The notes: generated by a model from the letters alone, not told the origin. A stretch of 64,000 nucleotides of DNA from Reyranella massiliensis 521 (GCA_945860205.1 CAMARK010000002.1:19496-83495); one strand, 5' to 3'. Positions 15,749 to 61,890 are shown, counted from the stretch's first letter. A program made the numbers and translations.

Positions 15749-16402
15749 GTGGCTCTGCCAGGCTTCGAGGAGCCGCCGCTCGACTGTCCACGCTGCCCGA
15801 GGCTCGTCGCCTTCCTGGACGGGCTTCGCAGCGCTCATCCCGACTGGAAGAACGCGCCCGTCCGCTCGTTCGGCGACCTTGAGGCGCGGCTGCTGATCGT
15901 GGGCCTGGCGCCCGGCATGCGCGGCGCCAACCGCACCGGCCGGCCCTTCACCGGCGACTATGCCGGCGACCTCCTCTACTCGACCCTGCTGAAGTTCGGC
16001 TTCGCCACGGGAACCTACGGCGCCGATCCCGCCGACGGGCTGCGCCTGGCCGACTGCCGCATCGCCAACGCCGTGCGCTGCCTGCCGCCGGAGAACAAGC
16101 CGCTGCCGATCGAATTCACCGCCTGCCGGCCCTTCCTGCAATCGGAGATCGCCGCCATGCCGCGCGCACGCGTGATCCTGGCACTGGGCAAGGGCGCGCA
16201 CGACCAGGCCCTGCGCGCGCTCGCCGTGCGCCCAGCGTCGGCTTACCCCTTCATCCACGGACGGCTGCACACGCTGCCGAACGGGCTGCTTCTCGCCGAC
16301 AGCTATCATTGCTCGCGCTACAACACGAACACCGGGCGCCTGACGACCGCGATGTTCCACGACGTCTTCACCGGCGTTCGTCAGGTCCTGCCGCCGACCT
16401 AG
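15749..16402 (+). CDS. Uracil-DNA glycosylase (family 4/5, UdgB-like)
   Basis: CPRC Fe-S ligands, GLAPGMRGANRTGRPFTGD, NAVRCLPPENKP, SYHCSRYNTNTGRLT. Confidence 0.92.
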   Translation: MALPGFEEPPLDCPRCPRLVAFLDGLRSAHPDWKNAPVRSFGDLEARLLIVGLAPGMRGANRTGRPFTGDYAGDLLYSTLLKFGFATGTYGADPADGLRLADCRIANAVRCLPPENKPLPIEFTACRPFLQSEIAAMPRARVILALGKGAHDQALRALAVRPASAYPFIHGRLHTLPNGLLLADSYHCSRYNTNTGRLTTAMFHDVFTGVRQVLPPT

Positions 16403-16773
16403 ACGCTCTCCGCCGCTGGCTCAACTTTTCAAATTTGGCCCAAACTCGCCGACAAATATTTGGCTTTCCAACCGCCGGAAAGCCAACAAATCCGGGATTT
16501 TGCCCGGCTCAACGGGCCCACCTGAAACGTGCGCGTGTTGGGCCCGAAAGTGTGCCGGATCTGTGCCCGGCCGTGCGCACGATTAGCTGTCCACGATTCG
16601 AGGCGTAGCTCTTTCCCTGTTGATGCCAGCACTGCCAGCACAAAGCCCTTTGGGCGTAGATGGATTGCTCTCATCCCTGGGTCAGGACCCAGGGCGGCTG
16701 CACCAAGCGCTATGCGCGAGCCCGTGGCCCCTCTTGCGGATTCCAGAGGGCACGGACAGGTCTTGCCGGAATG

Positions 16774-16812
16774 AAAAAGGCCGGCGCCCAAACTCAGAGG
16801 AAGCGCCAGCCT
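16774..16812 (-). ncRNA. Candidate ~39-nt single-hairpin small RNA with anti-SD (UUCCUC) loop and intrinsic terminator
   Basis: AGGCUGGCGC-UUCCUCUGAGUUUGG-GCGCCGGCCU-UUUU (10-bp stem, one G-U) starts 7 nt after a consensus -10 element. Confidence 0.55.
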
Positions 16813-16819
16813 GACAGAG

Positions 16820-16848
16820 ATATAGCCCAAAACCTGCTGAAATGTCAA
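16820..16848 (-). promoter_or_regulatory. Sigma70-type promoter TTGACA-N17-CTATAT
   Basis: -35 TTGACA (16843-16848), exact 17-nt spacer, -10 CTATAT (16820-16825); matches the alphaproteobacterial housekeeping consensus. Confidence 0.75.
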
Positions 16849-16857
16849 CTTTTCCTG

Positions 16858-17334
16858 CTAGCGCAGCGCCGCCTCGACCGCCTCTGTGATCTCGCTGGAT
16901 CGGGGACGCACGCGGCTCGGCCAGGCGCCGAGCAGGCCGCCGTCCTTGCCGATCAGGTATTTGTGGAAGTTCCACTTGGGCGCCGCGCCCTCACCCGCCT
17001 GCGCCGCGATCCATCGATAGAACGCATGGGCGTCAGGCCCGATTGCCTTCTGCTTCGACGTGAGCGGAAAGGTGACCTCGTACATCGACTCGCAGAACTT
17101 GGCGATCTCGGGCTCCGTCCGCGGCTCCTGCGCGCCAAAATCGTTGCACGGCACGCCCAGCACCACGAGCCCCTTGGGGCCGTAGGTTTCGTGCAGCTCC
17201 TGGAGGTCGGTGTATTGCGGCGTGAACCCGCAATAAGACGCCACGTTCACGACCAGCACGGCCTTGCCGGCAAGGTCCTTCAGGTCCAGTGGCTTTCCGT
17301 CGATCGTCGTGAAGGAATAGTCATGGGCCGACAT
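16858..17334 (-). CDS. Glutathione peroxidase (Cys type)
   Basis: VLVVNVASYCGFTPQY, LGVPCNDFGAQEP, PKWNFHKYLIG; ATG at 17334. Confidence 0.94.
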   Translation of the reverse strand: MSAHDYSFTTIDGKPLDLKDLAGKAVLVVNVASYCGFTPQYTDLQELHETYGPKGLVVLGVPCNDFGAQEPRTEPEIAKFCESMYEVTFPLTSKQKAIGPDAHAFYRWIAAQAGEGAAPKWNFHKYLIGKDGGLLGAWPSRVRPRSSEITEAVEAALR

Positions 17335-17335
17335 G

Positions 17336-18016
17336 TCAGATCTCCTCGTCATACCGCTGTTCCAGCCACGGGTCGCCGTAGTTGTGATAGCCGCGCACTT
17401 CCCAGAAGCCGGGCTTGTCCATTTCCGAGAATTCGACGCGCTTGATCCACTTCGCGCTCTTCCAGAAATAGAGCTTCGGGATCACCACCCTGAGCGGCCC
17501 GCCATGCTCGCGGCTGATCGGCTCGCCGTTCCAGCTCCACGCCAGCAGCACGTCGTCGGCCGCGAAATCCTCGAGCGGCACGTTGGTCGTGTAGGTGTCG
17601 TAGGAATGGAAGATGACGTGCTTGGCTTCCGCCTTGGGCTTCACCTGGGCCAGCAGGTCGCGGGCGCTGACGCCTTCCCACTTGTTGTCGTAGCGCGACC
17701 ATGCGGTCACGCAGTGGATGTCGCTGGTCAGCCGGGTCTTGGGAAGGTCGGTGAACTCGCCCCACTTCCAGGTCACGGGCGTCTCGACCGCGCCGTCGAC
17801 GAACAGGCGCCAGGCGTGGGTCGGAATCTCCGGCTGGACGCCGAGATCCAGCACCGGCCAGGTCTCGACCTGCCGCTGCCCCGGCGGCAGACGCACGGAA
17901 TGCGCCGCCGTCTTGCCGGTCAGCAGCCGGCCCTCGCCGGCCCATTTCTGCTTGCTGTCGATCAGCTTGCTTTTCAGCTTGCCGAACAGAGTGACGTCGT
18001 CGTCGGCCACACGCAT
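17336..18016 (-). CDS. Sulfite-oxidase-like molybdopterin oxidoreductase (MsrP/YuiH-like, no export signal)
   Basis: LPPGQ, WPVLDLG, DIHCVTAWS (Mo-ligand Cys), HGGPLRVVIPKLYFWKSAKW, GFWEVRGYH; start moved to ATG 18016. Confidence 0.88.
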   Translation of the reverse strand: MRVADDDVTLFGKLKSKLIDSKQKWAGEGRLLTGKTAAHSVRLPPGQRQVETWPVLDLGVQPEIPTHAWRLFVDGAVETPVTWKWGEFTDLPKTRLTSDIHCVTAWSRYDNKWEGVSARDLLAQVKPKAEAKHVIFHSYDTYTTNVPLEDFAADDVLLAWSWNGEPISREHGGPLRVVIPKLYFWKSAKWIKRVEFSEMDKPGFWEVRGYHNYGDPWLEQRYDEEI

Positions 18017-61402: not shown

Positions 61403-61890
61403 CGCCGGGTGGCGGGGTCACGCGGGCAAACTCCCTGCCCGTGTCCTTGCCCAAGTCCCACATGCCTTTTCATGGCCCGAAGGGCCGTTGGATGCCGTGT
61501 TTTCACGGCCTTCTCGCATTATTTGAAGACGCCTGAATGTAACGCGTTCTGTCTGGAAACCTGTCCAGAGTCGCGTCGCAAACCGGTCGCCCGGGACCGA
61601 CGTTCGCCGTCGGCATTGTATGCTGTTTGGGTCTCGTTCTTCGTAGTCGGAAGCATGGTCAGGACCATGCCAGGCGCAGCGCTCTCTGAAGAGCTTTGGG
61701 GGCACGCCGGGGGAGTTCCGGTGGCACAGACGCCTTTCAAGATAGCGAAAGCCTAGGGCGAATCCGGCTGAACCTGTGAATCGCGTTTCGCAAATCAGCT
61801 TCGCGGAATTCACCGGGCTGCTGGCAATGCCAGCACGGAGACCGCTACTGCCGGTCCTTCTCGCTAGACAGCAAGCGACCTGAAGTTGCC

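Follow-up and report, generated by a model that had tools for sequence, protein, structure and literature searches.

The near-consensus promoter and hairpin that follow the stop codon of gpx, on the minus strand of the 64,000-nt stretch of Reyranella massiliensis DNA analysed here (the window), are on balance best read as the control head of a mobile, non-coding and modular 455-bp repeat, a head in which the promoter would be joined to a sigma-pause-like element and, soon after it, to an intrinsic terminator. That the unit belongs to a multi-copy element is virtually certain, and that this element is a mobile insertion is very probable. A sequence-only reading had presented the unit as self-contained and ~39 nt long. 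A promoter and terminator able to give a ~39-nt RNA are plausible, and stem, promoter and U-run are kept in about 60 distinct copies from several species, but the unit is the head of a 455-bp repeated insertion.

The gpx-udg junction

The gpx stop codon (TAG, 16860-16858, minus strand, by direct reading of the window) is followed on the same strand by the −35 hexamer TTGACA (16848-16843; TTGCAA in most family members), a 17-nt spacer read directly from the sequence (16842-16826) and the −10 hexamer CTATAT (16825-16820), identified by direct reading and family comparison. Hairpin H1, AGGCUGGCGC[UUCCUCUGAGUUUGG]GCGCCGGCCU, begins 7 nt past CTATAT and occupies 16812-16778 of the minus strand. Its arms (16812-16803 and 16787-16778) enclose a 15-nt loop that contains UUCCUC, and together with a U-run of 4–5 residues in this copy (UUUU at 16777-16774) it forms a structure resembling an intrinsic terminator (16774..16812, minus strand). 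The TTGACA-N17-CTATAT promoter, the 10-bp hairpin and the U-run just after the gpx stop all read as the sequence-only reading had described them. The flanking reading frames encode a glutathione peroxidase (gpx; PF00255, E 5e-36) and a family-4-type UDG (udg; PF03167, E 1e-25). The one ORF into which the unit could lead has a length of 139 aa and begins with the TTG of the −35 box. That the unit drives a protein gene was considered and rejected, the frames being spurious and the 139-aa frame unconserved as a frame among copies.

The alphaproteobacterial sigma-70 consensus, as known from S. meliloti promoters, is CTTGAC-N17-CTATAT, and gTTGACA-N17-CTATAT agrees with it in both hexamers and spacing. 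A scan for E. coli-type consensus promoters failed to pick up the site owing to the low score that CTATAT gets against TATAAT, and a terminator scan of the locus passed over H1 because its 15-nt loop exceeds the 3–8 nt loop limit of that scan. H1 has the GC-rich stem directly abutting a U-run that is typical of intrinsic terminators, and its 10-bp stem folds at −21.1 kcal/mol (z = −2.0). In the MFE fold two C's of the loop pair with two G's, which leaves UUCCUC partly sequestered. The promoter is probably active and H1 is likely to terminate transcription; a weak point of the latter is that the 15-nt loop of this copy is long for an efficient terminator. Covariance-model searches of Rfam returned, for 15800-17400 at E <= 10, only two chance matches elsewhere in the region and, for the whole window at gathering score, one tRNA and nothing else. 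The cuckoo and alpha-r sRNAs, to which the sequence-only reading had pointed for comparison, find no echo in the Rfam model search, where neither these nor any other Rfam model matched. The idea that the promoter drives a housekeeping RNA, such as a two-piece tmRNA, was likewise rejected, ARAGORN and Rfam both being negative.

The nature of the insertion is apparent from a comparison of the gpx 3' regions of 30 genus genomes, in 24 of which udg follows gpx directly, without the element. In the closest relative (G084, locus L157, 91 % identity) and in G053 (L183), the convergent gpx and udg genes share a single CTAG palindrome that encodes both TAG stops, and this overlap is kept in modified form in most other Reyranella genomes. 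In the window, CTAG flanks 455 nt (16857-16403), with ...CGC TAG immediately before CAGGAAAAGTTGACA at one junction and GAGAGCGT immediately before CTAG GTCGG at the other. The left CTAG (16858..16861, minus strand, by direct reading), which corresponds to the single CTAG of the empty sites L157 and L183, holds the gpx stop, and the complement of the right one (16399..16402, minus strand, placed by comparison with the empty sites) holds the udg stop at 16400-16402 of the plus strand. Filled versus empty sites in 24 Reyranella genomes delimit the whole inserted non-coding element, designated type A, to 16403..16857 on the minus strand. The sister genomes G074 and G057 carry the same insertion, and a fourth species has a different element subtype in the gpx-udg site, again between two CTAGs. 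As regards the traits that define MITEs, the gpx-udg element has a possible target-site duplication and empty sites, and neither terminal inverted repeats nor a related autonomous element with a transposase were found for it. The earlier suggestion that the hairpin may serve as the gpx terminator is borne out in so far as H1 is the first terminator-like structure after gpx; in L157 and L183 the stops overlap without any intergenic terminator.

In L163 (G096), the gpx-udg gap is occupied by a different, ~85-nt palindromic insert (..CCTCTCCCCCTAGCGGGGAGAGCAGG..), which may mark this place as a hot spot of small insertions. Synteny with G015 gave no empty site, the downstream region being non-syntenic.

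Twelve further loci of the genome that carries the window (G000) were compared with G084, and ten were informative: five are empty in G084, one holds the promoter head only, two hold the same head with a different body, and at two the difference consists of ordinary genes. Almost every copy spans the whole interval between a pair of convergent genes, touching both stop codons. Of 54 copies, 16 have CTAG directly after the element, where its genome frequency would predict 3.5 %; since TAG makes up 33 % of stops here, this enrichment is modest and only suggestive of CTAG as a general target, and a possible CTAG target-site duplication is clear at the gpx-udg site only. No shared protein gene (transposase, RT or nuclease) was found within 2.5 kb of the copies, and a repeat search of 16390-16870 detected no terminal inverted repeats, only internal hairpins and direct repeats.

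Architecture and conservation of the element

A search of the same assembly with 16400-16900 uncovered a modular family of elements of ~430-455 nt, with ~20 loci at 68-87 % identity and 20 exact matches to the core motif. The core pattern GGTGCAGCCGCC-N5-TCCTKRS matched ~50 loci in named Reyranella assemblies. Across the genus, the core motif is present in 16-20 of 114 genomes at 2-22 copies each (20 in G000, 2 in G084), so that both the distribution of the element and its copy number are uneven, the former patchy, the latter variable. Full elements with both end modules in other Reyranella assemblies (n = 42) have middles of 117-183 nt, and because none of them carries a gene-sized insert the element is regarded as non-coding.

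All features of the type A element lie on the minus strand. Within the promoter, the spacer motif TTCAGCAGG (16833..16841) is the most conserved part of the promoter family by family comparison, and a −10-like NANNNT (CAGGCT, 16808..16813) overlaps both the predicted start site and the 5' arm of H1. Behind H1 comes a multi-branch domain (16695..16768; RNAalifold, alignment and MFE) in which H2 (CGGC..ACC paired with GGU..GCCG) encloses H3 (CCGUG..CACGG with an inserted CCCUCUGG..AGAGGG hairpin) and H4 (GCGC-AUA-GCGC), and which harbours a GGUGCAGCCGCC that is invariant in the alignment of copies. Hairpin H5, CCCUGGGU-CCUG-ACCCAGGG (16675..16694), is defined by covariation and has the loop CCUG closed by a U-A pair. 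A variable middle module (16563..16674), by alignment type 1 of at least three types, contains a tandem TGCCAGCAC repeat at 16624-16641. The conserved 3' module of the family holds three hairpins in the alignment of copies. Here lies the 3'-module hairpin GGGCCCA[ACACGCGCACGUUUCAGG]UGGGCCC (16514..16545), which has the conserved loop motifs CAACAC and UUCAGG and whose arms co-vary among copies (GGGCACA/UGUGCCC, UGGACA/UGUCCA). It is followed by the hairpin CCGGGC-AAAA-UCCCGG (16492..16507; scan and alignment) and by the terminal hairpin UUGGCUUUCC-GGCGGUU-GGAAAGCCAA with its tail AUAUUUGUCG (16450..16486; scan, alignment and fold), the likely 3' end of a long transcript. Short direct repeats, TTGGGCC ... 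GAAAAGTTGAGCC, occupy 16418..16443, with 1-3 copies of TTGGGCC per element, and the 10-nt GAAAAGTTGA occurs near both element ends, the exact repeat at the 5' end lying at 16854-16845.

Smaller repeats are found in and around the copies. A palindromic motif, GCACTGCTAGCAGTGC or its TGCCAGCA variants, lies just 5' of many promoter copies (L078, L038; G000 C6:~64385, C22:~13640, C86:~4480), and the tandem TGCCAGCAC of the middle module is the same motif inside the element. A 25-nt mini-hairpin, CCCUCUGGA(A/G)UCCGCAAGAGGG, is inserted in H3 in four copies (window 16728-16752, minus strand, and G000 C126, C86 and C103) and is also found once on its own (C6:11630-11664, 94 % identity); perhaps it is a minute mobile hairpin in its own right.

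Hairpins H1 and H5 are maintained in ways that bear on the molecule in which they act. In the family alignment, H1 is 93.9 % paired and mostly invariant, and its changes are chiefly C-to-U substitutions that keep G-U pairs on the sense strand. One pair shows a two-sided change (G-C to A-U in four sequences), and as 18 of 500 shuffles reach its covariation score, covariation in H1 is weak. H5 is 97.7 % paired with compensatory changes in five of its eight pairs, a score attained by none of 500 shuffles. The G-U pairs in both H1 and H5 point to folding of a sense-strand RNA rather than of DNA, and this direction agrees with the orientation of the promoter. The fold of the whole 363-nt RNA is unexceptional (z = −1.3). 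In alignment A1 the A2 of NANNNT is invariant and its T6 at least 90 % conserved; the overlap of NANNNT with the 5' arm of H1 accounts for the invariant A2 and for a U-G pair retained at T6 in H1.

A U-run of 4–5 follows H1 in 57 of 63 distinct sequences. The loop is a different matter: 49 of the 63 contain GGA, typically as UUGGACU or GGAUU, a motif that might lend itself to a CsrA-type interpretation, a minority is pyrimidine-rich (e.g., CUUCUUG, UUUCUCG), and CCUC occurs in just 2. The orthologous insertions in G074 and G057 have the loop GGGGAUU. Solo promoter-hairpin units without the rest of the element exist on contigs C171, C41, C57 and C29, the first with the same UUCCUCUGAGUUUGG loop. 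The sequence-only reading had made UUCCUC the seed of an anti-Shine-Dalgarno interaction and had looked to the conservation of promoter and loop, compared with that of the stem, to decide the matter. Stem and promoter are conserved, the loop is not, which makes for a mixed outcome. Two CCUC loops among 63, together with GGGGAUU in the orthologous insertions, leave no basis for such a seed, and from the alignment UUCCUC is to be seen as an accidental, lineage-specific loop variant.

The promoter family and the terminase cassettes

Recurrence of the promoter and hairpin in dozens of copies is a feature far beyond chance. A relaxed promoter pattern matched 76 sites in G000, 57 of which pass the −35/−10 filters, giving a family of ~57-70 sites. 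All 57 have TTG(A/C)(C/A)A, the spacer TTCAGCAGG(T/A)(T/A)T and a CTATAT-like −10, and 56 of them have NANNNT at one fixed register, 5-6 nt after the −10, whatever sequence comes next (background 8.7 %). Conservation of the promoter, with its spacer and NANNNT, far exceeds that of the bodies. These bodies comprise type A, three or more further short RNAs with hairpin terminators, another element type of ~360 nt and the leaders of protein genes; a terminator is present in all classes of promoter-led unit. Rfam searches of twenty other promoter-led loci of G000 were negative. With at most one mismatch, TTGCAAGTTCAGCAGG is found 4-52 times in ~20 of 114 genus genomes and essentially never in the remainder; the promoter head is restricted to one Reyranella sub-clade.

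The window contains one more non-coding element with such a promoter. It belongs to a different type, lies at 61420-61781 (minus strand) and has the promoter variant GATTCACAGGTTCAGCCGG..CCCTAGGCT. Its ~360-nt body has a GGUCCUGACC hairpin and a ACGCGUUACAUUCAGGCGUC hairpin in common with type A, and the same body is found after terL in contig C6. Short promoter-led terminated RNAs followed by TGAATTTTC(A/C)GACAGG occur in G000 at C13:33978-34550, C9:28601, C12:64034, C22:30734, C45:17017, C24:6431, C34:39643 and C66:26693. On C13, an orfA of the IS3 family (HTH_Tnp_1) also follows a short promoter-led RNA, the IS either targeting cassettes or carrying one at its edge.

Several promoter copies precede, with a ~80-nt leader that includes a hairpin and terminator, genes for small HTH proteins that are terminase small subunits (terS; phrog_4044, E 9e-24), and in four places of G000 terS is followed by the gene for the large subunit (terL; phrog_2, E 2e-41). 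These terS-terL cassettes, C6:62206-64352(-), C47:32194-34373(-), C88:180-2272(+) and C41:23-619(-)/C40:5-1564(+), are flanked by housekeeping genes and not by prophage genes. The promoter-leader-terS-terL arrangement recurs in five other genomes. About a dozen solitary terS-like HTH genes also lie in small intergenic islands, several with the same promoter (G000 C13:22037-22516, C127, C113, C42:10027-10410, C20:10735-11082, C49:21257-21676, C8:34690-34806 and others).

The cassettes share with type A only the promoter head, plus the 3' module in one case; this module follows terL in one of the four cassettes and may be an independent insertion. Descent of type A from the cassettes by internal deletion was considered and is weakened, since generally only the promoter head is in common; where G084 has larger inserts at orthologous positions, these consist of ordinary genes. 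TerL homologues are found in 86 of 114 genomes and are not confined to promoter-bearing ones, so that co-occurrence of TerL with the promoter clade was dismissed as unspecific. In the promoter-less genome G015 (locus L192, G015:C1:1694000-1712000), the only TerL homologue belongs to a head-gene cluster of phage/GTA-like character, which comprises small ORFs besides a portal-like ORF of 557 aa and a capsid-like ORF of 339 aa; no terS-like gene was recognisable upstream of TerL in this cluster. The presence of TerL in 86 of 114 genomes, together with this head-gene cluster in a promoter-less genome, implies that the cassette family is older than the promoter.

Proposed mode of action, alternatives and known systems

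In the reading that we favour, the repeat would have entered the CTAG shared by the overlapping stop codons of gpx and udg. Its head comprises a near-consensus alphaproteobacterial sigma-70 promoter with the TTCAGCAGG spacer motif, NANNNT at the start site, and the GC-rich H1 with its U-run. The promoter is presumed to be constitutive, and RNA polymerase would pause at the −10-like element. Most transcripts would end at H1 and give rise to a ~39-nt by-product RNA comparable to the 6S RNA that lambda makes from PR'-tR', H1 doubling as a terminator for gpx read-through. A factor of the Q, BrrG or GafZ type, loaded at the promoter, could then allow read-through past H1 into the structured body of ~320 nt and as far as the terminal hairpin near 16455.

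The last of these steps, a regulated read-through of the Q type, is put forward tentatively. In lambda PR'-tR', a strong promoter is followed by NANNNT and an early terminator that gives 6S RNA, and the Q-binding element lies inside the promoter, where the Reyranella family has its conserved in-promoter motif. The Reyranella unit resembles Q-dependent units in general (lambda PR'-tR', phages 21 and 82, the Bartonella BaGTA P_bgtA-K with BrrG, the Caulobacter GTA with GafYZ) in having a strong sigma-70 promoter, NANNNT and an early terminator with a short default RNA, and some of its copies stand directly upstream of terminase genes. The GTA promoter P_bgtA-K of Bartonella consists of TTGACA-N17-TATCAT and a NANNNT located 5 bp further downstream, is followed by a leader terminator and is controlled by BrrG, which is Q21-like; it is constitutive, its NANNNT is essential, and antitermination has been proposed as a general control of alphaproteobacterial GTAs (bioRxiv 10.1101/2024.11.20.624540).

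There are also clear differences. Q-dependent units occur once per phage or GTA, whereas the Reyranella units, known here from sequence, number 40-70 per genome. Q-dependent units lead a late operon, whereas most of the Reyranella ones are followed by non-coding RNA or a convergent gene: packaging genes follow the promoter in the form of terminase in four cassettes and some solitary terS, and the gpx-udg copy leads into a non-coding RNA and a convergent gene. Unlike Q-dependent units, those of Reyranella ride on mobile, mosaic repeats, and a Pfam search found no Q-, BrrG- or GafZ-like gene. The Q families PF03589 and PF06530 are absent from the genome by this search, which structure-level homologues such as BrrG would escape. 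Against antitermination it must also be said that 40-50 Q-type units per genome would be without precedent and that, as most units face a convergent gene, read-through would give antisense RNA. A bolder extension appears improbable at present. It would see the 40-70 promoter/sigma-pause/terminator switches, dispersed by a mobile mosaic element, under the control of one hypothetical Q/BrrG-like antiterminator that co-induces the terS-terL cassettes and ~20 structured RNAs, with the tandem TTGGGCC 3' repeats as possible pac-like terminase sites; this would amount to a dispersed GTA-like or lateral-transduction-like packaging system with many chromosomal start points.

Alternatively, the copies could be ~20 paralogous sibling RNAs of ~360 nt, structured and trans-acting, in which H1 is a protective 5' hairpin, the motifs GGUGCAGCCGCC, CAACAC...UUCAGG and the UCCUGA loop bind a common protein or RNA partner, and the middle module confers specificity. 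The strong compensatory covariation in H5, the co-varying arms of the 3' hairpin, the restriction of G-U pairs to the sense strand and the conserved promoter would all be expected of such RNAs, as would three discrete middle-module types and the orthology of several copies across species at flank-like identity (C30/L058, C1/L025). We nevertheless hold this rather unlikely: the U4-5 run kept after H1 in 57 of 63 sequences is needed by a terminator and not by a 5' cap hairpin, the same head stands before unrelated bodies and protein genes, and genomes with 91-95 % flank identity differ by gain, loss and exchange of copies, which are absent from most of the genus.

These last properties could be accommodated by purely selfish interspersed DNA of the MITE, REP/BIME or RIME type, whose hairpins serve transposition or recombination at the DNA level and in which promoter and terminator are incidental cargo, at most insulating the neighbours. 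Such DNA is multi-copy, non-coding, modular or mosaic and patchily distributed, and the preference for gaps between convergent genes up to both stop codons, the empty sites with a possible 4-bp CTAG duplication and the exchange of modules between genomes speak in its favour. MITEs, REP/BIME, the Rhizobium RIME and the Neisseria Correia elements indeed resemble the Reyranella element in being non-coding, multi-copy, lineage-restricted and modular with hairpins, in their preference for gene ends and in having empty and filled sites; Correia elements can moreover carry promoters or terminators, as this one does. The Reyranella element differs from all of these, however, in its 455 nt with subterminal direct repeats (GAAAAGTTGA and TTGGGCC) instead of terminal inverted repeats, in the complete strong promoter at one end, in its extensive sense-strand RNA covariation and in that no partner transposase was found. 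A purely selfish nature is unlikely on these grounds, as neither terminal inverted repeats nor a transposase within 2.5 kb of any copy could be found, promoter, spacer and NANNNT are far better conserved than the bodies, and the wobble and compensatory changes fit folding of the sense-strand RNA and not of both DNA strands.

Finally, a stand-alone ~39-nt sRNA that shuts off the translation of target mRNAs in trans, through base pairing of its UUCCUC with Shine-Dalgarno sequences of the GAGGAA type, is very improbable: promoter, hairpin and U-run are real and conserved and solo promoter-hairpin units exist (in C171 with the same UUCCUCUGAGUUUGG loop), but CCUC is found in 2 of 63 distinct hairpins against 49 with a GGA-type loop, the orthologous insertions in G074 and G057 carry GGGGAUU, the MFE fold engages two C's of the loop in pairs, the unit continues into ~370 nt of conserved sequence of the element, and the Rfam cuckoo and alpha-r models are unmatched. 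The Reyranella element does share with cuckoo/CcsR, MmgR/alpha-r8 and alpha-r14/15/35 its own sigma-70/RpoH-like promoter, hairpins, a Rho-independent terminator, the existence of several paralogues in each genome and an intergenic location. It differs from them in that Rfam remained unmatched at E <= 10, a CCUC-type loop is seen in just 2 of 63 sequences, its length is ~10 times greater and its copies are insertion-polymorphic. The two or more hairpins with conserved CCUCCUCCC-type loops that characterise cuckoo/CcsR are not found at the gpx-udg unit, which has one hairpin with UUCCUC, nor is a DUF1127 neighbour, the adjacent genes being GSHPx and UDG.

The mobile repeat with its promoter, sigma-pause-like element and early terminator also invites comparison with putative mobile promoters, a term applied by Nijveen, Matus-Garcia and van Passel (2012, PMC3575422) to near-identical promoter regions upstream of non-homologous sequences within one genome. 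The unit that is reused in Reyranella differs in that it comprises a promoter, a pause-like element and a terminator, mostly heads non-coding RNAs and reaches a very high copy number (40-70).

The analysis corrects a mis-annotation: a lone consensus promoter, even when followed by a hairpin and terminator, may belong to the front of a repeat and not to an sRNA gene, which becomes visible only through multi-copy and cross-species comparison. The family itself is undescribed: unmatched in Rfam, promoter-bearing, structured and insertion-polymorphic, it sits at the overlapping stops of convergent genes and is able to supply a terminator as well as a strong promoter. Moreover, with a promoter family that has the full sequence anatomy of phage and GTA Q-type antitermination sites and heads orphan terminase cassettes, the dispersal of antitermination regulons by mobile DNA becomes testable.
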